This document shows positions 2,828-38,462 of a DNA stretch of 39,054 nt, piece by piece (within the stretch, counting starts at the first letter, position 1; each line of letters begins with the position of its first letter). A program made the position numbers and the translations under genes. The notes under the pieces are model-generated. The model had not been told where the DNA came from and did no database searches. It saw nothing but the letters and a program-made list of their open reading frames with translations. The stretch lies in the IMG/VR virus record IMGVR_UViG_2874945390_000007; one strand, given 5' to 3'. Origin of the DNA: a virus (taxonomy: Duplodnaviria > Heunggongvirae > Uroviricota > Caudoviricetes).

Positions 2828-3805
2828 TTACATTCCTCCCAAGGGATTAAACCTCACCGCATCCTGCAAGTAATCCGGCGCAAGATGGGCATAAATCATC
2901 GTTGTCTGAATCTTTGCGTGCCCCAGAATTTTCTGGAGCGTCAGAATATTGCCGCCGTTCATCATGAAATGACTGGCGAAGGTGTGGCGCAGCGCATGAA
3001 CAGCCTGGCCGTCAGGAACATCAGGTGCGACCGTTTTGATGACATCGCGAACCAATGAATAATCCAGCGTCGGAAACACCAGTTTCCCGCCCCGTTTTTT
3101 GATCTTTTCAAACAGGCTTTCAGAAATAGGAACGGTACGGTTTTTGCTGTTCTTCGTTTTTGAAAAAGTGATTCGACAATGAAGAACACGGCGCTGCTCC
3201 AGTGCCGCTACCTCGCCCCATCGCGCCCCGGTCGACAGAAGGATTTCGACGGCCAGCCGTTCATCGGGATTTTCAGCCAGTGCATCCAGCAACTGAACAC
3301 ATTCAGACTTACTCAGATATCCCATTTCACGCTCGTTAACCTTCATTCCTTTAAGGCCTTGAACGGGGTTATCGTTAAGAAAATGGCCGGATGAGATGAG
3401 TGCGGTAAACATCGCGCTTAACGCCCCAATCTCTCGATTTATGGTGCTGGGCTGTATCCCCTGCTCTATCCTGGACACACGTAGCTCGGTGAGCATCGTT
3501 GTATTAAGTTTATGCACGCACGGGTCATCCATTGCCTCACTCAAGCGCAGCAATTTAAGGCGCGTGTTATGCCCTGACTTCATTAGCTGGCCGTGGTATT
3601 TCCACCACAAGTCAATAAGCACTGACAGCGGACGGCGATCAATGGAGTTTCCTTTCCACTCATTGTTATGCTGTTGCGCCAGCACCCACCGCTCATATAA
3701 AACTGCATCCGATTTCGTTTTAAATTTTTTGCGAATGCGTTTGCCTTTACGCCCCTCAGGACGCATGTCAAGAAGATACCCTCCCGGAATTGATTTTATG
3801 CTCAT
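2828..3805 (-). CDS. int: P2-type tyrosine integrase
   Basis: ORF 2828..3955; start preferred at ATG 3805 (MSIKSIPGGYLLDMRPEGRKGKRIRKKF...) matching P2 Int N-terminus; conserved ...LSTGARWGEVA..., ...HALRHTFASHFMMNGGNILTLQKILGH...IYAH... catalytic region. Confidence 0.92.
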   Translation of the reverse strand: MSIKSIPGGYLLDMRPEGRKGKRIRKKFKTKSDAVLYERWVLAQQHNNEWKGNSIDRRPLSVLIDLWWKYHGQLMKSGHNTRLKLLRLSEAMDDPCVHKLNTTMLTELRVSRIEQGIQPSTINREIGALSAMFTALISSGHFLNDNPVQGLKGMKVNEREMGYLSKSECVQLLDALAENPDERLAVEILLSTGARWGEVAALEQRRVLHCRITFSKTKNSKNRTVPISESLFEKIKKRGGKLVFPTLDYSLVRDVIKTVAPDVPDGQAVHALRHTFASHFMMNGGNILTLQKILGHAKIQTTMIYAHLAPDYLQDAVRFNPLGGM

Positions 3806-3854
3806 TCGTGAAGCCCCAGCGTTACAAGACCACCATGCCCCCAGCGTTCCATGA

Positions 3855-4166
3855 TTAGCCGGGCTGTGTGCCAGTCTTGCGGGATTTTTGAGAAGACGAT
3901 GTGTTTTCTGGCCCATCAGGGGAGAGAGAAGGACTGATCTGCCCAGCAGCCTCATTTGTTTCGTTACTCATCAACCACGTAGTGTATTTTTTAAATTCCG
4001 GGTGCATTGTGATTTTCAGTAAAACCTCCGTTCCCACACCTCGAATACCAGTCTCGTATTGCTTAACCGTACCAACCGCAATACCTATTGAATCCGCGAA
4101 CTTTGCCTGACTAAGCCCCTCAGATTCTCGAATTGCTTTTAGCTTCTTTGATATCTCTATTGACAT
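3855..4166 (-). CDS. C: immunity repressor, P2 C-like
   Basis: ORF 3855..4268; start preferred at ATG 4166 (MSIEISKKLKAIRESEGLSQAKFADSIGIAVGTVKQYETG...) giving about 103 aa with N-terminal HTH and ...FKKYTTWLMSNE...GQISP... resembling P2 C; upstream of int on same strand. Confidence 0.8.
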   Translation of the reverse strand: MSIEISKKLKAIRESEGLSQAKFADSIGIAVGTVKQYETGIRGVGTEVLLKITMHPEFKKYTTWLMSNETNEAAGQISPSLSPDGPENTSSSQKSRKTGTQPG

Positions 4167-23603: not shown

Positions 23604-25640
23604 ATGAGTACCACAACACGAAAATTTAAAACCATTATCACCGATACGGGTGCAAAAAAATTAGCGCAGGCAACCGCGCCAGATGGGAAACCTGTCCGCC
23701 TGACACATATGGCCGTGGGTGACGGCGGCGGTACTTTACCCACGCCAGACAGTAAGCAGACCCGTCTTGTGCATGAGGTGTGGCGACATACCGTTAATCG
23801 CGTCACCCTGGACGCAACACATCAGAACCACATTATTGCGGAGCTGGTTATTCCTCCTGAAACGGGCGGATTCTGGATCCGGGAAATTGGTGTGTTTGAT
23901 GAGCACGGCGATTTGATCGCGGTAGGCAATACTGCCGAAAGTTACAAGCCAACCGTTGCCGAAGGATCCGGACGTGCACAAACATTTCGCACCATTCTGA
24001 CCGTATCCAGCACTGCCACTGTGGCGCTTACCGTGGATAACACCATGGTGATGGCCACAGTGAATTACGTGGATGACAAACTGAAAGAGCATGAACAGTC
24101 ACGACGTCACCCGGACGCCTCGCTGACCGCAAAAGGCCTTGTCCAGCTCAGCAACGCCACCAACAGCACGTCTGAAACGCTGGCAGCGACACCAAAAGCC
24201 GTTAAGGCAGTAATGGATGAAACGAACAAGAAAGCCCCATTAAACAGCCCGGCACTGACCGGAACGCCAACAACACCAACTGCGCGACAGGGAACGAATA
24301 ATACCCAAATCGCAAGCACGGCTTTCGTTATGGCTGCGATTGCCGCACTTGTAGACTCTTCGCCTGATGCACTGAACACACTGAACGAGCTGGCGGCGGC
24401 GCTGGGCAACGACCCGAATTTTGCGACCACCATGACTAACGCGCTTGCGGGTAAGCAACCGAAAGATGCCACTCTGACGGCGCTGGCGGGGCTTGCTACT
24501 GCGGCAGACAGGTTTCCGTATTTTACGGGGAATGATGTCGCCAGCCTGGCAACCCTGACAAAAGTCGGGCGGGATATTCTTGCGAAATCGACCGTTGCCG
24601 CCGTTATCGAATACCTCGGTTTACAGGAAACGGTAAACAAGGCTGGTAACGCCGTGCAAAAAAATGGCGATACGTTGTCCGGTGGACTTACTTTTGAAAA
24701 CGACTCAATCCTTGCCTGGATTCGAAATACTGACTGGGCAAAGATTGGGTTTAAAAATAATTCGGATGCAGACACCGATTCCTACATGTGGTTTGAAACA
24801 GGCAACAACGGCAATGAATATTTCAAATGGAGACACCGCATCATTGGCACCCGGCCTAAAGACCTGATGAATCTTAAATGGAATGCTTTGTCTGTTCTTG
24901 TTGAAGCCCTTTTCAGCAGTGAAGTGAAAATATCGACAGTCAATGCACTGAGGATATTTAATTCATCTTTTGGTGCCATTTTTCGTCGTTCTGAAGAATG
25001 CCTGCATATCATCCCTACACGAGAGAATGAAGGGGAAAATGGTAATATAGGGCCACTACGCCCCTTTACGCTTAATCTCAGAACTGGCCGGATAAGCATG
25101 GGGCATGGTCTTGATGTTACAGGGGATATATTTGCAAACCGTTTTGCAATTAACAGTAGTACCGGCATGTGGATTCATATGCGTGACCAGAATGTTATTT
25201 TGGGACGTAATGCGGTATCCACTGATGGTGCTCAGGCTTTGCTCCGTCAGGACCATGCCGACCGCAAATTTATGATTGGCGGTCTGGGAAATAAGCAATT
25301 TGGCATCTACATGATTAATAACTCAAGGACAGCCAATGGCACCGATGGTCAGGCGTACATGGATAATAACGGGAACTGGCTTTGCGGCTCGCAAGTTATT
25401 CCCGGCAACTATGGCAATTTTGATTCCAGATATGTGAAAGATGTTCGACTTGGTTCACAGCAATATTATGGAGTGAACAACTGGCAAACATGGAATTTTC
25501 AGTGCCCGTCAGGCTATGTACTGACGGGGATTAACGTACAGGATACCGGAAAAAACTCTGCCGATAATATTGCAGGCGTTCATTACAGGCCAGTGCAAAA
25601 GTATATAAATGGCACTTGGTATAATGTGGCGAGTATTTAA
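23604..25640 (+). CDS. H: tail fibre protein H (constant N-terminal part plus currently expressed variable C-terminal part)
   Basis: 678-aa [25 protein letters not shown]... matching P2 gpH N-terminus; crossover site lies inside the gene at 24604..24629. Confidence 0.9.
24604..24629. repeat. left crossover site for DNA invertase (gix/pix-like), inside gene H
   Basis: ttatcgaatacctcggtttacaggaa; reverse complement ttcctgtaaaccgaggt... shares 17 nt with right site and 12/12 with the Mu gix half-site TTCCTGTAAACC. Confidence 0.8.
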
Positions 25641-25641
25641 T

Positions 25642-26169
25642 ATGATGCACTTAAAGAACATAAAAGCAGGTAATGCTAAAACAGTGGAGCAGTATGAGTT
25701 AACAAAGAAGCACGGAGTCATCTGGCTTTACTCTGAGGACGGAAAAAACTGGTATGAGGAAGTGAAGAACTTTCAGCCAGACACAATAAAGATTGTTTAC
25801 GATGCAAATAATATTATTGTCGCCATCACCAAAGATGCCTCCACGCTTAACCCTGAAGGTTATAGCGTCGTTGAGGTTCCTGATATTACAGCAAATCGTC
25901 GTGCTGATGATTCCGGTAAGTGGATGTTTAAGGACGGAGCTGTGGTTAAACGGATTTATACGGCTGACGAACAGCAACAACAGGCCGAATCACAAAAGGC
26001 CGCATTGCTTTCCGAAGCTGAATCAGTCATCCAGCCGCTGGAACGCGCTGTCAGGCTGAATATGGCGACGGACGAGGAACGCACACGACTGGAAGCATGG
26101 GAACGCTACAGTGTTCTGGTCAGCCGTGTGGATACGGCAAAGCCAGAATGGCCACAAAAGCCTGAGTAA
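25642..26169 (+). CDS. G: tail fibre assembly chaperone (Tfa / P2 gpG-like), active-orientation copy
   Basis: ORF 25609..26169; ATG 25642 ([40 protein letters not shown]...). Confidence 0.85.
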
Positions 26170-26174
26170 AAATT

Positions 26175-26194
26175 AAGGCCCGATATCGGGCCTT
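26175..26194. terminator. bidirectional hairpin between convergent tfa genes
   Basis: 20-bp perfect palindrome aaggcccgatatcgggcctt between stops of 25642..26169 (+) and 26198..26731 (-). Confidence 0.55.
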
Positions 26195-26197
26195 GTT

Positions 26198-26731
26198 TCA
26201 TTCTGGTTGTTCGGGAAACGTTACTGGCAGGCTGGAGGTGTCTGTGGATTCGACCTTCTGCGCATAGAGCATCCACTCGGTTAATTTTTGTTTATTCTCG
26301 TCGGAAATAATGCCCAGCCGTAGCTGTGAGTCCCATAGCTGGGTTTTATCCCTGACGAGCTGTAGCAGGCTTTGCTTTTCATTTTCCGCTTGTTGCCTCT
26401 GCTCTTCCCCGGTATAAGTTCGCTTTATCACTACGCCATCTTTGAACATCCATTTACCTGAAATATCAGCCCGGCGATTTGCTGTAATATCAGGAACCTC
26501 AACGACGCTTGCGCCTTCCGGATTAATTGCTGAAACATCCTTTTCAATACAAATAATAACGCCGTTGTGGTCATAGACCATTTTCAACGTATCAGGCTGA
26601 AAGTTCTTTTGTTCCTCATACCAGTTTTTCCCATCCTCTGTATAAAGCCATTTGATGTTAAATTGTTTCGTTAGCTGGTATTGCTCTTTTGTTTCAGGAT
26701 TACCAGCAGAAATGTTTTTTAAGTGCATCAT
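26198..26731 (-). CDS. alternative tail fibre assembly chaperone (Tfa'), silent-orientation copy
   Basis: 177-aa [43 protein letters not shown]... paralogous to the plus-strand Tfa with divergent C-terminus. Confidence 0.85.
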   Translation of the reverse strand: MMHLKNISAGNPETKEQYQLTKQFNIKWLYTEDGKNWYEEQKNFQPDTLKMVYDHNGVIICIEKDVSAINPEGASVVEVPDITANRRADISGKWMFKDGVVIKRTYTGEEQRQQAENEKQSLLQLVRDKTQLWDSQLRLGIISDENKQKLTEWMLYAQKVESTDTSSLPVTFPEQPE

Positions 26732-26733
26732 CG

Positions 26734-27678
26734 TTAAATACTCCCCGCGTTATACCACGTCCCATTAATGCAATACTGAATTGGCCTTGCCTGAGTTGTA
26801 TCAATTAGTTCATCTCTGTTTGAGTTAACGGAACCGGTAACAACATAACCTGACCTGTCAGACCATCCGGGACCATTCCATGTCTGAACAGATAACAGAC
26901 CACCAAGGCGAATACCTGTAATAAACCTTGAGTTACATTCTGCCTGCGTATATGCACCAACATCTCCCGCAGAGGGTTTGCGGGTTGTGGTGTAAAACTC
27001 TGACCAGTCAGCTTCAAAGCCATAACCATCACGCGCTGAACGATAAAAAATACCGCCGTTCCTGTAATTCACGCGGAACTGTACAGCAGGGCAGCTCCCC
27101 GTATTCATATTGAAGTGGAGGATTAATGTCGATGCGCCACCAATGTTTGCGTTATAGACCCCGCTATTCCAGTTCCAGCCAACAGCTTTATCATTTCCGA
27201 CAGTGCTTCCTGTTTGCCCTAAAGCAAATGCAGGTTGTTGATTTTTCGTGTTGTAGTCTCGTCGCCAGCCAGGAGCGTAAGCATCACCATGATTAATATA
27301 AGTGAATTGAGCGTTAGTAATTCCGCCACCGCTGGACGTGCTCGGCGTGGTAACGCGTATGGTCATTGCGCCGCGAGTGCCAATAACTTCCACCACAGCA
27401 CCTGCAAGACAAATATTTCCGCAACCTGTATCTGTAATGACCTTATTATTTGCATAAGCCCATGAGCCTTTGCACATCCAGTAAGGATGGTTAAATGCTC
27501 CCTGACTCTCCAGCCACGAAATAAATTGCGCGGTTGTCCAGACCTGACTATCGCCACCAATATTCAGCCATGAGCTATATGCGCGGCAGGCACCAATATT
27601 TTTGGTGAAGGTATCTTTCCCCGGAATATCTGCGCCGTTCTGGTTTTTCTGTAATGCGCCAGAAGCCTGATTTACCGT
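26734..27678 (-). other. alternative tail-fibre C-terminal cassette (H variable part, silent orientation; no own start)
   Basis: Minus-strand frame ...LQETVNQASGALQKN...CINGTWYNAGSI is collinear with the H region after the crossover site but has a different receptor-binding C-terminus; ORF-track N-terminal extension to 27834 reads through the crossover site into the IS and is not a real start. Confidence 0.8.
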
Positions 27679-27704
27679 TTCCTGTAAACCGAGGTTTGAG
27701 GTGT
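27679..27704. repeat. right crossover site for DNA invertase (gix/pix-like)
   Basis: ttcctgtaaaccgaggtttgaggtgt; inner half-site identical to left site in inverted orientation, outer half-site more degenerate. Confidence 0.75.
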
Positions 27705-27739
27705 ACTGGCAATAGCGGACACTACCATTTGTTCTTTTT

Positions 27740-28558
27740 TTAAGCAGCCATCTGATGATATTTTTCCCTGAAGGCTGCCGGGGAGATATTCCCCAGACGA
27801 GAGTGACGACGCTGACGATTGTAGAAAATCTCAATGTATTCCCGTATTACTGAGATGGCTTCATCCCGGTTATTAAAACGATAGTGGCTCAGGCTCTCAT
27901 TTTTCAGCGTTCCCCAGAAGCTTTCCATCGGAGCGTTGTCGTAACAGTTACCTTTACGCGACATTGATGTTTTCAGACCAAACTGCTCCTGTATGACCCG
28001 GTAATCGTATGCGCAGTACTGTGAACCTCGATCAGAGTGGTGGATTAGCCCGGCAGGTGGGCGCTGGCTCCTGAGCGCCATAAACAGGGCTTTACCTGTC
28101 AGCTCTTTTGTCATGCGCTCTCCCATGGCGTAGCCGACAATTTCGCACGTATAAACATCTTTGATGCCAGCGAGGTACAACCATCCCTCCTGTGTGGCAA
28201 CATACGTCAGGTCCGCCACCCAGACCTGATTTGGTGCTGTAGGAGCGAACGTCTGGTTCAGCAGATTTGGCGCAACTGGCAGATTGTGGTTCGAGTTCGT
28301 AGTCGCTCTGAACTTGCGTTTCTGCTTACAGCGTAGCCTTAGCTCCTTACGAAGACGTGCCAGTCGGTCACGACCAACGATGATGCCATTCTCTGCCAGC
28401 TCCGTCTGGAGCCGCCGGGTTCCATATGTTTCGCGAGTGCGGATATGTGCCACCTTAATCTCCAGTTTTAGCCGCTCATCACTTTGTTTTCTGTCTGAGG
28501 GTTCATGCTGTACCCAGTTGTAATAACCGCTCCTGGATACACCAAATACCTGACACAT
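27740..28558 (-). CDS. IS3-family transposase OrfB (catalytic DDE domain; expressed as OrfAB fusion by -1 frameshift)
   Basis: 272-aa ORF with ...VWVADLTYV...GWLYLAGIKDVYT...HHSDRGSQY...CYDNAPMESFWGTLK... typical IS3 OrfB. Confidence 0.9.
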   Translation of the reverse strand: MCQVFGVSRSGYYNWVQHEPSDRKQSDERLKLEIKVAHIRTRETYGTRRLQTELAENGIIVGRDRLARLRKELRLRCKQKRKFRATTNSNHNLPVAPNLLNQTFAPTAPNQVWVADLTYVATQEGWLYLAGIKDVYTCEIVGYAMGERMTKELTGKALFMALRSQRPPAGLIHHSDRGSQYCAYDYRVIQEQFGLKTSMSRKGNCYDNAPMESFWGTLKNESLSHYRFNNRDEAISVIREYIEIFYNRQRRHSRLGNISPAAFREKYHQMAA

Positions 28559-28593
28559 CGCTTCAATGGGAAATTGTTGTCGCCATTGTTCGA

Positions 28594-28896
28594 TTAACGC
28601 GTATTTTTCAGCGACTCCTGTGCAAAATACGCTGTTGCTTTTTTTAATATATCTCGCTCAAGGCGAGCTTCATTTAACGCCTTACGCAGTTGCAGAATTT
28701 CAGATTCCAGTTCAGCCACCGTGCGGGAACCAGGAGTACCGAGCCCTTTTCTGGCGGCGGTAACCCATTGTCCTAAAGTGCCTTCAGGAAGAGATAATCG
28801 GGAAGCGCCTTCACTGATCGAAAGTTGATTTTCAAGAACCGTTCTGACAGCTTCGGCTTTGAACTCTTTAGAGTAACGTTGGGTTTTTCTGCTCAT
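28594..28896 (-). CDS. IS3-family transposase OrfA (HTH/leucine zipper)
   Basis: 100-aa ORF MSRKTQRYSKEFKAEAVRTVLENQLSISEGA...; slippery TTA AAA AAA GCA near its 3' end (complement of 28638..28649). Confidence 0.9.
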   Translation of the reverse strand: MSRKTQRYSKEFKAEAVRTVLENQLSISEGASRLSLPEGTLGQWVTAARKGLGTPGSRTVAELESEILQLRKALNEARLERDILKKATAYFAQESLKNTR

Positions 28897-29025
28897 TATT
28901 AGCTCCTTCTGATGCCATTCTATTTCAGGAAGGAGTGTCCGTTAAACTCAGGCTACCTCAGTTTTAGATAATGGCCGTTTCCGGCCTGCATGGCATGATT
29001 TGCGCTTTTGGACGGGAGATTCAGC

Positions 29026-29613
29026 GTGCTGATTGGCTATGTAAGGGTATCAACAAATGACCAGAATACAGACCTGCAACGAAACGCTCTTGTTTGTGCA
29101 GGATGTGAACAAATATTTGAAGATAAATTAAGCGGGACAAAGACAGACCGACCGGGATTAAAACGCGCTTTAAAGCGCCTTCAAAAAGGTGACACGCTGG
29201 TTGTCTGGAAACTGGATCGCCTCGGGCGAAGCATGAAACATCTGATTTCTCTCGTCGGGGAACTACGGGAGCGAGGAATTAATTTTCGCAGTCTGACCGA
29301 CAGCATAGATACATCTTCTCCAATGGGGCGTTTTTTCTTCCACGTGATGGGTGCCCTGGCTGAAATGGAACGTGAATTAATTGTTGAACGTACACTGGCC
29401 GGACTGGCGGCAGCACGCGCACGGGGGCGCACAGGCGGACGTCGACCGAAGCTGACAAAAGAACAGCATGAGCAAATAGCAAGGCTGATCAAAAACGGGC
29501 ACGACAGAAAACAACTGGCAATAATTTACGGCATTGGTATATCGACGATTTATCGTTACCACCCCGCAGGAGAATCAATCGGAACAATAGAGAAGAGTCA
29601 GGAAACAAAATAA
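29026..29613 (+). CDS. pin: serine DNA invertase, Pin/Gin/Hin/Cin family
   Basis: ORF 29008..29613 (TTG); preferred GTG start 29026 giving (M)LIGYVRVSTNDQNTDLQRNAL...LVVWKLDRLGRSMKHL...GINFRSLTDSIDTSSPMGRFFFHVMGALAEMERELIVERT... nearly collinear with e14 Pin; catalytic Ser in YVRVST. Confidence 0.92.
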   Translation: MLIGYVRVSTNDQNTDLQRNALVCAGCEQIFEDKLSGTKTDRPGLKRALKRLQKGDTLVVWKLDRLGRSMKHLISLVGELRERGINFRSLTDSIDTSSPMGRFFFHVMGALAEMERELIVERTLAGLAAARARGRTGGRRPKLTKEQHEQIARLIKNGHDRKQLAIIYGIGISTIYRYHPAGESIGTIEKSQETK

Positions 29614-29648: not shown

Positions 29649-30143
29649 TCAGAACAACCCTTTAACTGAACTGGCCGCGCTGTTAAGGGATGATGTTACC
29701 TTATCTTTGAAGCCGGACAGCATATCGCTGAACGATGAGGATTGCAGGCGCTCCCGCAAATCCTCATCACAGCGTTCAAGAGTCAGTGAAAATTCTATCT
29801 TTTTCGCCTTACCGTAGCGATCAAACTCGGAGCGGGTCGTATTCGTTTCGGTCAGGACATACATGCCGTAAATCTGCCCGACGCCATCAATCAGAGGCCA
29901 GGGTCGTCCTGTATACGCCTGCGTGGTCAGCAGCGACAGCGACACTTCGCCACCTGTAATTTCAGGATAAAGCACACCAGAAAGAACGATGCGCTCATCA
30001 CCTGCACCGATATACTGCCAGCTTGCCGAACGGTTAACGCGTTCATTTTTCACATGCCGCCAGCTTTTGTTTTGCTGTAACTGCTGATGCGGCAATGTAC
30101 GCAGCTCAAAAACAAACATGCCGTAGATCATCATCATGGCCAT
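29649..30143 (-). CDS. U: tail protein U
   Basis: 164-aa ORF ...FVFELRTLPHQQLQQNKSWRH...GRPWPLIDGVG... resembling P2 gpU. Confidence 0.8.
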   Translation of the reverse strand: MAMMMIYGMFVFELRTLPHQQLQQNKSWRHVKNERVNRSASWQYIGAGDERIVLSGVLYPEITGGEVSLSLLTTQAYTGRPWPLIDGVGQIYGMYVLTETNTTRSEFDRYGKAKKIEFSLTLERCDEDLRERLQSSSFSDMLSGFKDKVTSSLNSAASSVKGLF

Positions 30144-30149
30144 GACTCC

Positions 30150-32993
30150 TCAATCTTTATCGTAAAAACTGCCACGCCCGGCACGGGCGCGCCGTTCCAT
30201 TTCTGCCCTGACCATTTCACCGACCAGTTTCGCCAGTTCGCGGGGATTCTGCGTAACAACGTTATGCAGATGAACATGAATTTCACCACCAAATCCGGAG
30301 GCAACAGGCTCCCGGTTACGGGAAGTTACAGGAACTGATGCCACTGGAGAGCGTATGGCCTCCGCCACCGGGCGGGAGCTGGCCGCAACAACAGGGACCA
30401 GCGCCGGAGGCAGCGGAGCCGGGACCACGGGTGTGATATTAATTGCGGGGGCAGGCTTACTGACCTGCGCAATCTTCCGCTCCTGCCACTCCCCACGAAC
30501 AGCAAGTGCGCGGGGCAGGTTCTTAAAGACAATATCGCCGGGGCCAATGCGTTTTTTCGTCTCATCAACCAGCTTACCTGTGTTATCAGCAATTTTGCTG
30601 AGTCTGCGTAGCGTCCCGGTATTGCTGTCTGTGAGCGGTTTGTTGTCTTTGGGTTTATCACCTCCGGTGCCATTGCCATTTTCCACAGGCTTCGGCGGAT
30701 TGATTTTCGCCAGGTTCCCCTGAAGCAAGGCAACCTTGTCCTGAAGAATGGCCGCACGCTGTGCGTCTTCGATTTTCTTGCGCGCCCTTTCCGCTTCATC
30801 CGGAAGGACGCCAAGTTTTTCAAGTATCCACGCCAGCGTATCCAGTAGCATTTTTGCAGGTGTCAGAACAAGTTGTAACGCACCGCCAAGAACGTTACCG
30901 AATATCTCGCCAGCACTGGCACATTTATCCAGCGTTTCCTTGCTGGACTCCATCGGTGACAGCAGCGATTTAAACCAGTTAAAGACCTGAATAATCCCAT
31001 CGCGCACGACATCAAAAACAGGGCCAAACCGTTCAAAGGTTTCGCGCAACGGGGTCAGCCTTTCCATAATCCCGCTGAACACCCCGGCAAAAAATGCCCT
31101 GATGGGATCCCAGTATTTCCAGATAAGAACGGCAGCTCCGGCAAGCGCAGCCACGATAAGACTAACCGGACTGAACAGCGCCCCGATAGCGCCACCAAGT
31201 AAAGAAACGGAACCCGTCACCATTCCCCATAATGCAGGCAGAACCCTGACAACATTCATTGATTCGGTCAGGAGAGAAAAACCGAGACGCAACGTAGCCA
31301 GCTTCCCGTGAAGCACCCCAATAACCAGAGACAACGAACCAACCGTTGCTGTTGTCGCCAGCAGTGCGCCTCCCGCTATCAGTAACTGGCGCGTCAGTGC
31401 CGGGTGGGCCTGCGCCAGCGCCGTCACCTTTGAGACAACCCGCGTGAGCCACTGCGTGACAGAACGCAGCGGACCGTCAACCAGATCACTGATGCGAATA
31501 CGCAGACCTTCCCATGCACTGCCGAGTGATTTCAGGTTGCCATCAAGGTTATTGGCCATAACCTTTGCCGTGCGTTCTGCCTCACCGCGCGCGCCTTCAA
31601 GTTCTTTTCTCAGTTTGGCTAAGAAGCCGTCACCTGCCGCATCAACGAGGCCCATAAATGATGTGAAAGCCTCTTCTCCGGCAATGTCCTTAAAGAACGA
31701 TACCCGGTCAACCTCCCCGTATTTGCGGGTGGCTTTATAGAGATCGGCCAGCACATTCTCCATCGGGCGCATTTTGCCTTTGGCGTCAGCAACTGACACC
31801 CCCAGCTCTTTCAGTGCTTCTGCCGCTGCCTTTGGCGGTGATGACAGATTGGCCAGGCTTTTACGCAACGCTGTACCTGCATCACTCCCCCTGATACCCA
31901 TCTTCGCCAGCACGCCCGCCATCGCTGCGGCCTGCTCCAGCGATATTCCCAGCTTACCCGCCACCGGACCTGCATATTTCATGGTTTCGCCCAGTGCGCG
32001 AAGGTCAGTGTTGGTACGGGTAAACGCTGCGGTAAGTGTGTCACCGACCCGGTCCATCTGGTCAGCAGAGAGGCCGAACTGCGTCAGGATATTGGAACCA
32101 ATATCCGCCGTCTCGCCGAGGTCCATACCGCCAGCCGTTGCCATGCTCAGCACGCCGGGAAGCGCAGCCTGAATGGCCTGCGGTGTGAAACCAGCCATTG
32201 CAAGAAATGCCTGTCCACTGGCGGCATCGCCTGCGGTGAACTGCGTTTCAGAGCCAAGTTTTAACGCCTGCTCACGCAGCGCCTTAAACTGCGGGCTGTT
32301 TTTATCGATTCGCGTCAGTGCCTGAACACGGGACATCTCTTTCCCGAACCCGATAGCGGGCTGCAAAAAACGCCCGGCAGCATAGCCGCCCGCTGCCGCC
32401 GCACCTGTTGCCAGCGCACCACCTGTTTTCAGTTTTCCCGCTGTTTCCTGCGCGCGTGAATACCGCTCACGCGCCTGCGTTACACGCGCAAGCGCCCGCC
32501 GTTCGCGTTCAAGCTGGTTGTTGTATTGTCCGGTGCGTCTGATGGCCTGCTGGATGGTGTTATCGCTGCCTGTCAGGGAAATGCCGTGGCGTTTCAGCTC
32601 TCCGCCAAGTTCCCGCATTTTCTGAATTTCCCGTGTGCGCGATTCATTCAGGCGTTCAAGCCGGGTGCTTAACTGCTGCATCAGCTTTTGTTGTTTTTCG
32701 CTGAGCACTGTACCCGTGCGTTGTAACTGATTAAGGGCGTTAAGCTGGCGTCGTGCTTTCACGATGCCCGCATCCGCTTTACTGACAGCGTCACGGGCGC
32801 GCTCAAATGAACGCGCCTGACGCTCGAGATTTTTGATCGCCCCCTGCGTTCGCTGGATGGAGTCACCAAACTGCCCCATCAGGCGGCGGGCGTTTTCGGC
32901 AGGCCGGGTCAGCCTGTCAACGGCGCTGAAAGCGACCCGGATATCAAGAGTCTTCATTGTCTGCATTCCCGCTGCGAAGTGCCGCCCGCTCAC
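30150..32993 (-). CDS. T: tail tape measure protein T
   Basis: 947-aa ORF, helical/Ala-rich with central hydrophobic segment; position between E/E' and U. Confidence 0.88.
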   Translation of the reverse strand: MSGRHFAAGMQTMKTLDIRVAFSAVDRLTRPAENARRLMGQFGDSIQRTQGAIKNLERQARSFERARDAVSKADAGIVKARRQLNALNQLQRTGTVLSEKQQKLMQQLSTRLERLNESRTREIQKMRELGGELKRHGISLTGSDNTIQQAIRRTGQYNNQLERERRALARVTQARERYSRAQETAGKLKTGGALATGAAAAGGYAAGRFLQPAIGFGKEMSRVQALTRIDKNSPQFKALREQALKLGSETQFTAGDAASGQAFLAMAGFTPQAIQAALPGVLSMATAGGMDLGETADIGSNILTQFGLSADQMDRVGDTLTAAFTRTNTDLRALGETMKYAGPVAGKLGISLEQAAAMAGVLAKMGIRGSDAGTALRKSLANLSSPPKAAAEALKELGVSVADAKGKMRPMENVLADLYKATRKYGEVDRVSFFKDIAGEEAFTSFMGLVDAAGDGFLAKLRKELEGARGEAERTAKVMANNLDGNLKSLGSAWEGLRIRISDLVDGPLRSVTQWLTRVVSKVTALAQAHPALTRQLLIAGGALLATTATVGSLSLVIGVLHGKLATLRLGFSLLTESMNVVRVLPALWGMVTGSVSLLGGAIGALFSPVSLIVAALAGAAVLIWKYWDPIRAFFAGVFSGIMERLTPLRETFERFGPVFDVVRDGIIQVFNWFKSLLSPMESSKETLDKCASAGEIFGNVLGGALQLVLTPAKMLLDTLAWILEKLGVLPDEAERARKKIEDAQRAAILQDKVALLQGNLAKINPPKPVENGNGTGGDKPKDNKPLTDSNTGTLRRLSKIADNTGKLVDETKKRIGPGDIVFKNLPRALAVRGEWQERKIAQVSKPAPAINITPVVPAPLPPALVPVVAASSRPVAEAIRSPVASVPVTSRNREPVASGFGGEIHVHLHNVVTQNPRELAKLVGEMVRAEMERRARAGRGSFYDKD

Positions 32994-33473
32994 GCCAGCT
33001 AACCACTTCGCCGGGCGTCATCATGAAGATTTCGGCGGGCGACCAGTTAAAAATGGCGGCAATATCCGCCACAAAGTCTTCTATGTGCTCAAAGCACACA
33101 ACCGTGATCAGGCTTCCGTCGCCTGTTCGTTCTTCTCGCCAGAGTCCGCACCGCTCAAAAAATTTACGGCAACCACACATAACTGAATAAAGTCACGGGA
33201 TGCCATTTTTTTGATCGTCACTTCATCCAGTCGCGGTGATGTCACGCGTGACAGCAGCGTAAACATGGATTCCGCTTTCAAATTCAGCACATCAGACAGC
33301 GACAAATCTCGCAGAGATCCAGCCTGCTCAATAGCCCCGGTGATCTCCACATACGTGATTTTTTCGCCGCCTCGCTCAATTGGTTGGGTAAGTTTTACGC
33401 CACGCTCACTGGTTTCTTTCACAGTGTCAGCAACGACCGTGTTTTCGGTATCGATGTTTTTCGTCTCTTTCAT
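32944..33473 (-). CDS. E+E' programmed -1 frameshift product
   Basis: Minus-strand -1 frame ORF (32944..33180 in track) continues from the A7 slippery run inside E and overlaps the start of T, as for P2 E/E' and lambda G/GT. Confidence 0.6.
33108..33473 (-). CDS. E: tail assembly chaperone E
   Basis: 121-aa ORF upstream of T; contains slippery A7 run (complement of 33204..33212). Confidence 0.75.
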   Translation of the reverse strand: MKETKNIDTENTVVADTVKETSERGVKLTQPIERGGEKITYVEITGAIEQAGSLRDLSLSDVLNLKAESMFTLLSRVTSPRLDEVTIKKMASRDFIQLCVVAVNFLSGADSGEKNEQATEA

Positions 33474-33527
33474 CAGGAAACTCCTTTCAGTCAGAGGCGA
33501 CGCACTGCGCCGCCTGCATATTACTTA

Positions 33528-34040
33528 TCAGCCAAGCCCGAGCGCGGAACGGATGCGATCGGGCACAATGTCCCTGCCGTCCTTCCGGTAAATGAAGTTC
33601 AGCAGGTCAATCTCCCACAACGGGCGATCGTTAACACTCAGCTTGTAGTAGGTGTTTTTAATGGCGTAAGTGTGTGATGTGGCTTCGCCCTGTTTGGCTT
33701 CCCCCATATCAATTTCCGTCACACGTCCGCGCATTTCGACTTCATACAGGTCGCTTTCAGCGTCGGTGTAGTATTCACCCGCAAAACGCAGCAGCGTACC
33801 GTCAATCGTGCCGCCATACTTAAGGAACAGCTCACGAACTGCGCCCCCCATGACAAAGCTCGCATCAAGCGCGGAGTCATCCAGGCCGAGATCAATACTT
33901 ACCGCTCCCATCATGCCACCACCCCGGTAGCTGTCGGTTTTGCGCGTCAGCTTAGGCAGAGTGACGGACGTCACCTTACCCACTTCGTTTTCACCATCCA
34001 CAAACAGCGTAAAAAAGCGAAGATGTTTTGGTACAGCCAT
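33528..34040 (-). CDS. FII: tail tube protein FII
   Basis: 170-aa ORF; size and position as P2 FII. Confidence 0.85.
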   Translation of the reverse strand: MAVPKHLRFFTLFVDGENEVGKVTSVTLPKLTRKTDSYRGGGMMGAVSIDLGLDDSALDASFVMGGAVRELFLKYGGTIDGTLLRFAGEYYTDAESDLYEVEMRGRVTEIDMGEAKQGEATSHTYAIKNTYYKLSVNDRPLWEIDLLNFIYRKDGRDIVPDRIRSALGLG

Positions 34041-35224
34041 CAGGCACCTCCCAGCACCGCAAATGCGGGACCAAAGAATTCATCAGTAAACGACTGGTAA
34101 AGCTCCATGTCTTCCAGCGGGGGAACAGGCGTATATTTGTAGCGAATACGCACGCGCCCCTGACGTAAATTCGTGGTGCCGTTATCCACCACGTCATACC
34201 AGCACGACGCCCCAATCAGTTTCCCGGCAGTAACCAGTGAATCCAGTTTTGCCCTGATGGCACCGATAACATCCTTCACGTTCGCAGGCGTCAGTGGACT
34301 GTCGATGGTTTCAAACTGCGCTTCCGCAATTGAATCAGCCAGCACCTGTGCGGTTCGGGTATACACCTCAAAGATGTAGGCGTTCGTTTCCGGTGTGCGG
34401 TTGCCCCAGAAGCGGAACCCGTTGCGACGAATAATGGTCGTGATTTCTTTGTTGTTGAGGCTGTTGGCATCACTGTCTTCGGCCTGCAACGACCAGAACA
34501 CATGCCTGGACATCCCCAGCACATTTTTAACCGGAACGTTGGACAGCGATTTGTGCCAGCCCTGCTCATGGTCAATGTACGCACGAAGGCCGCACGCATA
34601 GGCAGGCGCGGGGAACGTTTCGTTTTTGCCACTTTTCGGGTTGTAGGCGATGAAGTCCGGCCATAAGAGCATCACCTCACGTTCGTTGAATTTCTGGCGG
34701 TAGGTAATTGCCTCAGCCATCGTGTTACAGTCATGACATGAGGCATACACAAACGCGCGCAGTTTACCCGCAATCACGCACAGGGATTTTGTCACCGCCT
34801 CCGTGTCCAGCTCCGGCGCGGCCAGAATACGCGGACGGTATCCGATGCTTTCATCCTGCTCTGCAACAAGCAGCGCATACATCCCCGTATAGCTGCCGTC
34901 AGATTCAGAACCACCGATAACCAGTTGATCCTGCGTTTTTCCGTCTTCTTCTTTGTGTTCAGCCACGCGAACGACGATCACCTTTGTGCTCACCTGGTCT
35001 GCGATGGCCTTAAGCGCACGATAAAGCGTCCCCGTTGTTCCGCATTTTCCCAGCACGTCATTGACGCGGGGCAGCAGTGTGGGCTTGTTCAGCGGGAACA
35101 GCTCCGCGTCCGCATCATCCGCCGTTGCCACGATACCGATAACGCTGGAATCAACATCGTTAATCGCTGTTACCAGGTCGGTATTTTCCGTAACACGGGC
35201 ACCATGAAAACGAGTTTCACTCAT
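34040..35224 (-). CDS. FI: contractile tail sheath protein FI
   Basis: 394-aa ORF with ...FPLNKP..., ...KLRAF..., ...LLWPDF..., ...DHEQGWHKSLSNV..., ...IRRNGFRFWGNRT..., ...YTRTAQV..., ...YKYTPVPPLE... matching P2 gpFI. Confidence 0.92.
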   Translation of the reverse strand: MSETRFHGARVTENTDLVTAINDVDSSVIGIVATADDADAELFPLNKPTLLPRVNDVLGKCGTTGTLYRALKAIADQVSTKVIVVRVAEHKEEDGKTQDQLVIGGSESDGSYTGMYALLVAEQDESIGYRPRILAAPELDTEAVTKSLCVIAGKLRAFVYASCHDCNTMAEAITYRQKFNEREVMLLWPDFIAYNPKSGKNETFPAPAYACGLRAYIDHEQGWHKSLSNVPVKNVLGMSRHVFWSLQAEDSDANSLNNKEITTIIRRNGFRFWGNRTPETNAYIFEVYTRTAQVLADSIAEAQFETIDSPLTPANVKDVIGAIRAKLDSLVTAGKLIGASCWYDVVDNGTTNLRQGRVRIRYKYTPVPPLEDMELYQSFTDEFFGPAFAVLGGA

Positions 35225-35381
35225 AGCTTCAACCCCTTGTATCCGTTAAATGATTCGGCAACAATCATCACCCACCACGCGCGTAATCTCACCCCTGCGC
35301 CATTCTCCCGCCACGGCGACAACAAAAAGCAGTAACCCCCTCCGCACGCACATGCGACCATGCCACACAGGGAGGGAGCAG

Positions 35382-36491
35382 ATGACCGACACCACCATGC
35401 AATTGCTCAGTCAGGGCACAGACCCCGTGAAAATGCCGGATTTTGATATTCTCGCGGAGGGTAAAACGCTGTCAGGCGTGGCAGAGCGCCTGATGAGCCT
35501 GTCACTGACCGACAACCGGGGATTTGAGGCGGACCAGCTCACCATCACGCTGGATGATGCGGATGGTCAGTTGCAGCTACCGCCACGGGGCGCGCGCCTG
35601 ACGGTTCTCATTGGCTGGAAGGGAGAACCGCTGACAGAAAAAGGCACTTACATTGTTGATGAAATCGCTCACGAAGGACCGCCGGACAGGCTGACTGTTT
35701 CAGCCAGAAGCGCAGATTTTCGGGCTGAATTTAACGTTAAACGTGAGGTGTCCTGGCATGATGTGACCGTTGAGCGTGTGGTATCCGCCATCGCTCATCG
35801 GTATGGTCTGAAACCGCAAATCAGCGAAATGCTGATGGATATCGAAATCGACCACGCCGACCAGACCGAAGAAAGCGACATGTCCTTCCTTACGCGCATG
35901 GCGGAAATGCTGGGCGCAATCACCACGGTAAAAAGCGGTAATCTGTTATTCATCATGCCCGGTGGTGGCGTGAACGCACAGGGCCAGCCGTTGCCCTCGT
36001 TCGCCATCACACGCAGCAGCGGCGATCGCCATCAGTTCCGCATTGCTGACCGCGAAGCGTATACGGGGGTACGCGCTTACTGGCTTGATCTTAATTACGG
36101 GAAAAAGAAAAAAGTCAGCGTGAAACGCCGCAAACCGTCAAAACCAAAAAAGGAGAAAAGCAGCAGCCGGGAAGGCGACTATATGGAAGGTGCGGAAGGC
36201 AACGTGTTTGTGTTACGCAAAACTTATCAGAACGAGCAGGCAGCAAGACGTGCAGCGGCGGCAAAGTGGCAGCAGCTACAACGCGGAGCCGCATCATTCT
36301 CCATCACACTGGCGCATGGACGTGCAGAACTCTACCCCGAAATGCATGGCACGGTAACAGGATTTAAAAGCGAGATTGATAATCAGGACTGGATTATTGC
36401 AAAAGCCGAGCACACCATTGATAACAGCGGCTTTACCACGCAGCTTGAGCTTGAGGCAAAAATCCCGGAATGGATAGCAGAAACAGAGTGA
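35382..36491 (+). CDS. D: tail protein D
   Basis: ORF 35250..36491; ATG 35382 (MTDTTMQLLSQGTDPVKMPDFDILAEGKTLSG...) preceded by GGGAGGGAG; about 369 aa. Confidence 0.85.
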   Translation: MTDTTMQLLSQGTDPVKMPDFDILAEGKTLSGVAERLMSLSLTDNRGFEADQLTITLDDADGQLQLPPRGARLTVLIGWKGEPLTEKGTYIVDEIAHEGPPDRLTVSARSADFRAEFNVKREVSWHDVTVERVVSAIAHRYGLKPQISEMLMDIEIDHADQTEESDMSFLTRMAEMLGAITTVKSGNLLFIMPGGGVNAQGQPLPSFAITRSSGDRHQFRIADREAYTGVRAYWLDLNYGKKKKVSVKRRKPSKPKKEKSSSREGDYMEGAEGNVFVLRKTYQNEQAARRAAAAKWQQLQRGAASFSITLAHGRAELYPEMHGTVTGFKSEIDNQDWIIAKAEHTIDNSGFTTQLELEAKIPEWIAETE

Positions 36492-36716
36492 GCAACTTAA
36501 ATGTATTAACTCAGAACGGATCAACACACTCACAACATAGAGTCAATATAGCTGCTCGCTTTGTTCCAGCAAGGATGCCTATTTCTAAGGAAAAACAGAG
36601 CAGAAACATATGGTGTTTTCCTACCTGACATCAGGGGTGGTAAGAATCATGCTTTGATAACCAATTGATAACTATTATTATATTAATCTAACACCATTGA
36701 CATAGTTGAGGTTTGA

Positions 36717-38219
36717 ATGAACAAAAAGCTGTATTTATTCCCAGACTCAAACATTTTTCTACAATGCAAGGACTTGACGCAGGTAAATTTTTCCGAGATT
36801 ACTGCTTGTGATGAAGTATGTATCATTATTACAAGGCCCATTCAGCAAGAGATTGACCGCCAGAAAGGGCAAGGTAATTCCCGCCTATCCAAAAAAGCAA
36901 GGAAGGCTGCTAGCCTATTTAATCAAGTAGTTGATTCAACTGACATGACTCTTGTTATTCGTGAACGCTCGCCGCGAGTTTTTCTTACCATGGATCTAAG
37001 CCTGAAACCATGTGAACAGTTATCTGAACAATTGGATTATCAGGAGGCCGACGATCGTTTTGTTGGTATTGCGGCAGGGTATTGCGCTGACGATCCAGAT
37101 TCGGAGGTGGCAATCATTACCAATGATAGCGGTCCACGTTTTTCAGCAATAAAACATAATATAATCTGCTATAAAGTGCCTTCTTCATGGTTGCTTCCTG
37201 CTGAGCCAGATGAAAAGGATAAACAAATTAAATTGCTGGAAGCTAAGCTGAAGCAATTCACTCAGTCTATGCCCGATTTCAGCATTAAAGTAGCCGATGA
37301 CGAGCAATTAAATATTGTACTTCCTTATTATACAGCTTTATCTGAATATGAAGTTGATAATTTGCTTTGTCAACTAACGGATGCATTCCCATTGGTTACA
37401 AACTTTGACAATGAACAAACTACCCCACAATCACTAGAAAAAATCATCAAGTCATTTAGTCAACAGGAGTATTTCCCTGTATCAGCAGATGATATTTCTC
37501 TTTATAAAGAAAAACATTATCCACTTTGGAAAAAGCAGTGTGAAGAAATACTGAAAAACTGTCATACTCATATTAATCCGAAGGCAATAAATTACCCGCT
37601 GTCGTTTTTATTACAAAACACAGGTTATACTATCGCTGAACGTGCTGTGGTAACATTTACAGCAAAAGGAGATTTTCGTCTGTGTGGATTTAATTGGGAG
37701 ATAATGGAAGAGCTGACTGAAAGCAAAAGGATTGACCTACCTTCAGCCCCTACCGCCCCCAAAGGAAAATGGCGTAGTGTATGTGGCGTAACAGAAAGAA
37801 TGCCTTACGCTGGGGGAGCTTTGGAAACACCGCTATCCAGTATAATTTCAAAAGAAATTGGTCCTTTGTTATCTCTTACTCCAACAGAAAGGGATAAAAA
37901 CGATTTTTATTATAAAGAAAAGAGAAATGAGCCAGTTCAAGTTGTATCGCTGGAATGCGAAGAGTGGCGTCATCAAGTCAAAGAAGAAATATTCCCGTTG
38001 TTCGTATATACAGCCAACAAACCAAAGAAAGTGAATGGTGCAATTGAGGTGAGAGTTGATGCAAATAACCTTACCAATCCGGTCATTAAAACATTTAAAT
38101 TAAAAATAACTATAGAAGAACATAGTGCATTTTCAACCATAACAGAAATGGTGCAGACATACATTCAAGAGCAGAAGAAAAGACAGAAAAGTTCTATTAG
38201 CGCACAAATCAAAACATGA
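36717..38219 (+). CDS. PIN-like nuclease domain protein (N-terminal PIN fold, about 350-aa C-terminal region of unknown function); candidate defence gene
   Basis: 500-aa ORF; N-terminus MNKKLYLFPDSNIFLQ... (first acidic residue), ...QQEIDRQ..., ...DDRFVGIAAGY..., ...VAIITNDSGP... fit the four-acidic-residue PIN pattern; visibly AT-rich relative to flanking D and ogr; AT-rich promoter-like upstream region with TTGATA hexamers. Confidence 0.6.
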   Translation: MNKKLYLFPDSNIFLQCKDLTQVNFSEITACDEVCIIITRPIQQEIDRQKGQGNSRLSKKARKAASLFNQVVDSTDMTLVIRERSPRVFLTMDLSLKPCEQLSEQLDYQEADDRFVGIAAGYCADDPDSEVAIITNDSGPRFSAIKHNIICYKVPSSWLLPAEPDEKDKQIKLLEAKLKQFTQSMPDFSIKVADDEQLNIVLPYYTALSEYEVDNLLCQLTDAFPLVTNFDNEQTTPQSLEKIIKSFSQQEYFPVSADDISLYKEKHYPLWKKQCEEILKNCHTHINPKAINYPLSFLLQNTGYTIAERAVVTFTAKGDFRLCGFNWEIMEELTESKRIDLPSAPTAPKGKWRSVCGVTERMPYAGGALETPLSSIISKEIGPLLSLTPTERDKNDFYYKEKRNEPVQVVSLECEEWRHQVKEEIFPLFVYTANKPKKVNGAIEVRVDANNLTNPVIKTFKLKITIEEHSAFSTITEMVQTYIQEQKKRQKSSISAQIKT

Positions 38220-38462
38220 GGGTGTACTCAAATAATACAATGCTATAGTAAATCTATAAGTGCATAACTATTTCCTGATCTTTTCCCAAAATAGATGACA
38301 GGATAAAAAACATTCCAATCTTTTACAGGCTTTGGATAAATCGTATCAAAGCCTATTTCTTCAAGAGTTAAATCACCGCTTTTCGCTCGAAACGGACTGG
38401 CTGTTGGAGTATGAGCCAGAACAACTTAGAATAGCCCCTGCACTACGTTAAGGGAGGTCGCT

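Follow-up and report, generated by a model that had tools for sequence, protein, structure and literature searches.

The window, by which we mean the whole 39,054-nucleotide stretch that was analysed, contains a P2-family prophage that is integrated beside btuC and looks intact apart from one copy of the insertion sequence IS600. The integrase gene (2828–3955; taken here as a mechanical 375-aa ORF, for which database entries use a shorter start) and the tail-fibre gene H enclose the replication, head, lysis and baseplate genes. The active form of the fibre gene, H-A (23604–25640, plus strand; 678 aa, Pfam Phage_tail_fib and Phage_fiber_2), joins a constant part to the cassette SvA, and an exact-sequence look-up in public assemblies found the identical H-A protein on 224 contigs. 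On the basis of ORFs, Pfam matches and the reciprocal inversion seen in relatives, we delimited an invertible segment between two central dinucleotides (24618–27690). SvA and TAP-A lie on the plus strand of this segment and are active here; TAP-B and SvB lie on the minus strand and are silent. The two fibre C-terminal cassettes are thus mirror images, each with its own assembly chaperone, between two crossover sites, the arrangement that defines Din-family switches. SvB, the silent alternative C-terminal cassette, is gp37_C-like and occupies 26734–27690 on the minus strand; as a mechanical ORF it extends to a TTG at 27834, inside IS600. On the far side of IS600 is an intact gene for a pin-type DNA invertase (29026–29613, plus strand; 195 aa, GTG start). 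Its product carries the Resolvase domain (PF00239, E = 1e-50) and C-terminal HTH_7 domain (PF02796, E = 2e-13) of a serine recombinase and is identical to Pin of IS-free prophages. Tail genes (29649–35224, minus strand), gpD (35250–36491) and a PIN-domain cargo ORF of 500 aa (36717–38219) complete the prophage, whose chromosomal flanks we compared through a neighbouring 166-aa ORF.

Positions 27697–28960 constitute a complete IS600 of the IS3 family, 1,264 bp long and with its transposase on the minus strand. The element is 100% identical from end to end to annotated copies (‘IS3-like element IS600 family transposase’) that sit on chromosomes and plasmids in unrelated contexts; other full copies are likewise 1,264 bp, within the 1.2–1.5 kb of IS3 elements. 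A search for inverted-repeat pairs placed the right inverted repeat (IRR, the orfB-downstream end) at 27697–27723 (TGAGGTGTACTGG...) and the left inverted repeat (IRL, upstream of orfA) at 28934–28960 (...CAGGCTACCTCA). Together they form the longest inverted repeat of the region, 27 nt with 70% complementarity; the repeats are imperfect, start with 5′-TG and finish with CA-3′ (TGAGGT...ACCTCA). On the minus strand, orfA (28594–28896) encodes 100 aa with a helix-turn-helix transposase domain (PF01527 HTH_Tnp_1, E = 1.5e-20), and the orfB frame (27740–28558) encodes 272 aa with a DDE/rve catalytic domain (PF00665 rve, E = 3e-26) and further matches to PF13683, PF13333 and PF13276 (rve_3, rve_2 and HTH_21). 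A slippery heptamer, A AAA AAG (A7G; 28638–28645, minus strand), was assigned to −1 programmed frameshifting from its sequence and frame phase. Its phase suits a −1 shift from orfA to orfB, by which OrfAB is predicted to be expressed; the modelled fusion spans 27740–28896 and has 385 aa, the length given in RefSeq for ‘IS3-like element IS600 family transposase, programmed frameshift’. A promoter scan found a promoter-like pair for the transposase at 28945–28917 on the minus strand, inside the IRL region.

The trinucleotide GTT stands on both sides of IS600 (27694–27696 and 28961–28963) and is single in empty sites. Duplications of this size (3 bp, or 3–4 bp) are what IS3-family elements normally leave at their targets; members of the family move by a copy-out/paste-in route. 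IS600 was first described in Shigella sonnei, is abundant in Shigella and is in itself routine. Compared with the IS600 reference, the copy is identical in nucleotides, repeats, orfA and orfB, A7G site and 3-bp duplication, and its location alone is particular. It is an ordinary copy whose intact sequence is identical to that of multi-copy elements, and it may be able to transpose. The initial annotation had described an intact IS3-family element with orfA, orfB, an A7 site and TG-initiated repeats, and all of these were recovered from Pfam matches, repeats and sequence; the exact identity that it had left to comparison is IS600, by the full-length match to annotated copies. The boundaries that it gave, 27707 and 28950, fall 10 bp short at each end, on internal TG/CA dinucleotides, and are replaced by 27697 and 28960. 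Its further statement, that the window has no other transposable element, is probably correct: outside IS600 the window follows an IS-free E. coli prophage colinearly, and no transposase was found among the other non-colinear ORFs that we tested.

We located the insertion point by comparison with IS-free relatives, which lack exactly 27697–28963, that is, IS600 and one GTT. Removal of these positions restores ...TTCCTGTAAACCGAGGTTTTAGATAATGGCC..., and IS-free alleles read ...CCGAGGTTTTAGATAATGG... in two alignments of IS-bearing against IS-free sequence with breakpoints exact to the base. An 800-bp construct without the IS has uninterrupted matches, reaching 99.9% identity, in 132 complete E. 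coli genomes, at loci annotated ‘tail fiber protein | recombinase family protein’, and in a whole-window comparison with an E. coli A36 prophage colinearity at IS600 is broken only at 27697/28961. The restored right crossover site is a 26-mer, TTCCTGTAAACC-GA-GGTT^TTAGATAA (^, IS600 insertion point), also written TTCCTGTAAACC GA GGTTTTAGATAA. IS600 therefore interrupts the outer half-site, at a point 4 bp beyond the central GA. What remains next to the invertible segment are 18 contiguous base pairs (27679–27696, plus strand), made up of the inner half-site TTCCTGTAAACC, the central GA (27691–27692) and GGTT. The displaced outer 8 bp, TTAGATAA, are now at 28964–28971 on the plus strand; we assigned them by reconstruction from the IS-free relatives, in which the site is uninterrupted. 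The left site, within the tail-fibre gene (24604–24629, minus strand; reverse complement TTCCTGTAAACC GA GGTATTCGATAA), is intact. The two sites share a 25-bp perfect inverted repeat, TTTACCGTTTCCTGTAAACCGAGGT.

The right site of the window is thus a hybrid of 18 original base pairs followed by the IS600 end, TTCCTGTAAACC GA GGTTTGAGGTGT (also written TTCCTGTAAACCGAGGTTTGAGGTGT), and is identical to the original at 22 of 26 positions. The outer 8 bp that IS600 replaces include the conserved outer ...GATAA, which reads TTATC on the opposite strand. The IS600 end matches the lost half-site at four of the eight replaced positions, which is within chance (calculated P ~0.11), so that likeness of the IS end gives no support to binding of the hybrid half-site by Pin. 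These results explain why the right site had been noticed as more degenerate than the left, since IS600 inserted in its outer half. The IS-free comparison that had been proposed as a check fixes the insertion point to the base and the target duplication as GTT, and it moves the element from 2–3 bp outside the right site, where it had first been placed, to within the 26-bp site, 4 bp from the central dinucleotide.

IS600 and its GTT move the outer 8 bp, pin and everything downstream 1,267 bp away, and the separation of the invertible segment from pin that was noted at the outset is borne out to that extent. The promoter scan of the empty allele found only one sigma-70-like pair upstream of pin, a −35 TTTCCT and a −10 GATAAT spaced by 16 nt. 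TTTCCT lies in the inner half-site and GATAAT in the outer half-site, and the insertion parts them. The scan gave no −10-like hexamer upstream of pin except GATAAT, at 28967–28972, which is now paired with a poor hexamer of the IS end. Because IS600 splits this −35/−10 pair, pin expression may have been changed; the promoter is a predicted one with weak matches to consensus, and the idea is tentative since the scans gave only weak candidates for pin. By analogy with the hin and gin systems, and from a resemblance to the hin enhancer region, we place a putative enhancer within pin; when the 5′ region of pin was scanned loosely for Fis motifs, no two sites made a convincing pair. The putative enhancer is presumably now ~1.4 kb from the site instead of ~0.1 kb. 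The recombinational enhancers of Din-family systems are bound by Fis. They usually lie within the 5′ portion of the invertase gene (Kahmann et al. 1985, as cited in the Hin invertasome paper). The Hin enhancer works far from hix, and a long distance relaxes the limit of one rotation, with extra rotations as a result (Hin invertasome paper).

The switch of the window is of the Din-family tail-fibre inversion type known from Mu, P1, e14, p15B, S. boydii and the EC958 prophages. The Din family comprises Mu G/gin, P1 C/cin, e14 P/pin, Salmonella H/hin and S. boydii B/pinB, each with a resolvase-type recombinase of ~190 aa that has a C-terminal helix-turn-helix, and Din systems share with the window a 2-bp core, control of alternative tail-fibre C-termini and 26-bp inverted sites, the right one being interrupted in the window. 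The window differs from Mu, P1 and e14 in that its phage is P2-like and one of its sites is a hybrid with an IS end. The same layout is found in Phi4 of EC958, a P2-like E. coli prophage in which a constant part of the fibre gene is followed by a mirror-image pair of C-terminal cassettes with their chaperones, next to a serine invertase gene. The left site of the window is the published Phi4 5′ site, TTATCGAATACCTC GGTTTACAGGAA (PMC4134206). The restored right outer half and central dinucleotide (reverse complement TTATCTAAAACCTC) equal those of the Phi4 3′ site, whose outer half is TTATCTAAAACC (PMC4134206, Table 3), and the restored right inner half equals the Phi4 5′ inner half and differs at two bases from the Phi4 3′ inner half. 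Phi4 has a truncated invertase, and its segment is believed to be inverted in trans (PMC4134206), whereas in the window pin is intact and the 3′ site is split by IS600. Two precedents come from this strain: inversion in trans is documented for the EC958 prophages, and Phi2 inverts with one strongly degenerate half-site, GAGAGATAAACG (PMC4134206). Cin recombination at quasi-cix secondary sites, with one good half and a matching central dinucleotide, has also been described (Iida & Hiestand-Nauer 1986, 1987, as cited in PMC4134206). Quasi-cix sites, however, are sequences that happen to occur in chromosomes or plasmids and are used very rarely, whereas the window has a formerly perfect site degraded by an IS, the use of which we infer from natural variation.

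That variation was read from relatives found by exact protein look-up in public assemblies, together with their surrounding DNA, and genotyped with junction k-mers. We took species labels from protein names and a single paper; the genomes that carry the insertion are labelled S. sonnei, except for one labelled S. boydii (CP026836.1). The compared prophages differ from the window by 0–5 SNPs in a 7-kb backbone. Without IS600, orientation A (that of the window) is found in CP065615.1 and orientation B in AAUVNX010000034.1. With IS600, orientation A is found in the window, CP026836.1 and UGZB01000001, and orientation B in CP180280.1, DAEANX010000037.1 and AATFNM010000037.1. A second IS600 accompanies the first in CP044151.1 (orientation A) and in CP032523.1, AKNC01000050.1 and CP044191.1 (orientation B); it lies in the TAP-B chaperone gene with the same junctions and the same CAC duplication in A and B genomes. 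All IS-bearing genomes compared have the same pin-proximal IS junctions, and the left-site junctions are in every case the exact reciprocals expected of exchange between two sites. Both orientations, with exact exchange at the sites as in Din-family switches, thus occur among IS-free and IS-bearing alleles alike. CP032523.1 (B) and CP044151.1 (A) moreover share two private SNPs in the 7 kb that are absent from the other loci.

Insertion of IS600 into the site has also left a mark in protein databases. The chimeric junction ORFs start at a TTG inside IS600 and read into whichever cassette is silent, and both exist in RefSeq, as WP_244758614.1 (MULTISPECIES Shigella) and WP_252997184.1 (S. sonnei). 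The presence of both chimeras independently shows both states in deposited genomes. A homologue search with the chimeric ORF was dominated by ordinary fibre proteins, and exact-sequence look-ups were more informative.

At the level of deposited sequences, these comparisons show that precise inversion between the sites took place at least once after the arrival of IS600. An inversion after both IS copies were in place is indicated because A and B genomes share the second IS600 and two SNPs; since genomes with one IS600 also occur in both orientations, the economical reading, by parsimony, would be at least two inversions after the first IS600 insertion. We consider it very probable that IS600 transposed into the right site of a Pin-type switch and that inversion by Pin or a related invertase persisted, probably more slowly. 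IS600 entered the outer half of the right site of a P2-like Shigella prophage beside btuC with a 3-bp GTT duplication, and the inner half-site, the cleavage dinucleotide GA and GGTT stayed adjacent to the invertible segment. Pin, or a related invertase acting in trans, would still catalyse inversion on the hybrid site, with one invertase subunit poorly anchored there and the enhancer acting from ~1.4 kb. Owing to this poor anchoring and the distant enhancer, slower switching is predicted, probably rarer than in IS-free relatives and not abolished. A slower switch or altered pin expression in the IS-bearing allele is a possible outcome.

The agent of exchange could conceivably be something other than an invertase. 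Homologous recombination across the 25-bp perfect inverted repeat could have produced the post-insertion inversions, given that TTTACCGTTTCCTGTAAACCGAGGT is identical at both sites and exchange anywhere within it gives the observed junctions. Twenty-five base pairs are, however, at the lower limit for RecA-dependent exchange, and an intact invertase gene with correct sites is present. Frequent switching is moreover seen in IS-free relatives of the same prophage family: in EC958 each orientation accounts for ~50% of the reads (PMC4134206). We therefore regard RecA-dependent inversion as unlikely and catalysis by Pin or a related invertase as the better account.

The initial annotation had suggested that the IS could lock the fibre switch. 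In its strong form, destruction of the right site or of pin expression by IS600 would have frozen whichever orientation was held at insertion, and the replacement of the outer 8 bp of one half-site, conserved GATAA included, and the splitting of the only promoter-like hexamer pair upstream of pin are the points in its favour. A lock is nevertheless contradicted by the same IS junctions in both orientations, and by the sister genomes that share the second IS600 and two private SNPs but differ in orientation. We judge a frozen switch to be very improbable.

We give a similarly small chance to a target hot spot, at which IS600 would have hit one and the same nucleotide independently in prophages with orientation A and in prophages with orientation B, with no later inversion. 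The occurrence of the IS-bearing prophage in S. sonnei-labelled genomes and in CP026836.1 (S. boydii) with different chromosomal flanks would fit more than one insertion, as would an unrelated IS600 copy, L058, that adjoins GTAAACGGAGGTC, an 11/13 match to the target. The likeness of L058 was, however, selected by BLAST ranking, and this copy lies in a lambdoid tail operon; the two-IS genomes would in addition need two independent double insertions at identical nucleotides as well as two shared SNPs. L058 and a second E. coli copy, L059, into whose flanks the BLAST matches had extended, lie in lambdoid tail-gene contexts and not in crossover sites, and similarity of the flanks had favoured them in the ranking. 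Of the 5,426 complete E. coli genomes, 3,487 show IS600 matches, many with multiple copies, and more than 130 have this prophage junction; in none of those searched do both junctions of this insertion occur. A single partial junction match, in strain 720632, comes from an IS600 that sits elsewhere in a related prophage. We also compared 33 distinct flank pairs, obtained from 70 IS600-containing stretches of two IS-rich genomes, and found no common target motif in the flanks of these other copies and varied 3-bp duplications. With no searched E. coli genome carrying both junctions and no motif shared by the 33 flanks, an insertion hot spot is not supported by the sequences, nor could one account for the sister genomes that have two IS copies and two SNPs in common. 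Our literature search found no direct report on IS600 target preference or on half-site mutations. Recombination between the two IS600 copies, finally, was rejected as the source of the flip, since it would invert only the intervening DNA and leave the reciprocal junctions at the left site unexplained.

With a single insertion followed by inversion as the preferred reading, neither the IS nor the kind of switch is new, and the locus is unusual only as a natural half-site-replacement allele that still recombines; our search of the literature found no report of this insertion. The allele offers a natural substrate on which to ask what length of the second half-site these invertases require in vivo, and at what distance their enhancer must lie. 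It is possible, although we would not presume it, that one half-site, the core and 4–5 bp of the other half-site, with an enhancer ~1.4 kb away, suffice in vivo, and that a fast switch has been turned into a slow, lineage-marking one in epidemic Shigella. The occurrence of the IS-bearing prophage, identical over 11 kb, in S. sonnei- and S. boydii-labelled genomes could further mean that the phage is still spreading horizontally with the IS. For annotation, the IS600 ends and the crossover site are now base-exact, and WP_244758614.1 and WP_252997184.1, both entered as ‘phage tail protein’, are seen to be chimeras that begin within IS600. For typing, both the orientation and the IS status of the locus vary among very close Shigella genomes, a variability that can break short-read assemblies and could mislead structural-variant comparisons.

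We found that the tail-fibre switch region carries further lesions in relatives of the window prophage. In one sub-lineage, a second IS600, flanked by a 3-bp duplication (CAC/GTG), breaks the TAP-B tail-fibre assembly gene at a point equivalent to window ~26326-26338, cutting the chaperone of the alternative SvB fibre to 137 aa. Its carriers are loci L005/L016 (CP032523.1), L019/L046 (AKNC01000050.1), L029 (CP044151.1) and L042 (CP044191.1). Two other relatives, L023 (DABPLH010000011.1) and L026 (UGBG01000002.1), contain the same prophage without window 26357-29604, a deletion that extends from within TAP-B, whose 5′ portion is lost, through SvB and the right crossover site into the invertase gene pin, almost all of which is gone; microhomology at the junction is only 2 bp. 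These prophages are locked in orientation A, in which SvA is the active cassette. Downstream of TAP-B in a further relative, L020 (CXDC01000039.1; 8684-12221), we observed a partial, inverted copy of pin followed by additional fibre and chaperone cassettes, an arrangement that may be multi-segment (shufflon-like) or may be a misassembly.

Additional IS600 or IS3-family insertions were observed at different places in the same prophage family, in L001 (E. coli 720632), L056 (CP026802.1) and L053 (CP044151.1). The genes hit by such insertions are a TAP gene, a DUF4761 early gene and a 181-aa gene adjoining the integrase. IS hits appear to be building up in the prophage within IS-rich hosts.

The junction of the first IS600 is itself crossed by a mechanically called ORF of 366 aa (window 26734-27834, minus strand), which begins at a TTG within the element and runs into the silent SvB cassette; its orientation-B counterpart is 388 aa long. 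RefSeq lists both under the name 'phage tail protein' (WP_244758614.1 and WP_252997184.1); these entries are most likely annotation artefacts.

The window is 100% identical to CP026836.1 (loci L013/L024/L048) across 11.1 kb, and a private SNP (25893 A) is common to the two. CP026836.1, which is labelled S. boydii (PMC12817139), has a split btuE and lacks the DDE_3-type transposase, possibly of the IS630 family, that lies 3′ of nlpC in L049 (CP032523.1), L051 (HE616528.1) and L056 (CP026802.1), all taken to be S. sonnei. Either the IS-bearing prophage has been transferred between lineages or the species labels are inconsistent.

Between gpD and the ogr region lies a 1.9-kb insert (window 36502-38419) that is absent from the E. 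coli A36 prophage, which is elsewhere colinear with the window. The insert has a plus-strand ORF (36717-38219) whose 500-aa product carries a PIN_4 domain at its N-terminus; this is probably a moron, or cargo gene, of the phage. On the other side of gpD, the gpU, tape measure, E/E′, tube and sheath genes (29649-35224) occupy the minus strand. Since H/G and gpD (35250-36491) lie on the opposite, plus strand, this tail block has the reverse of its orientation in the canonical P2 gene order; all relatives examined (L002 and L033) show the same arrangement as the window.
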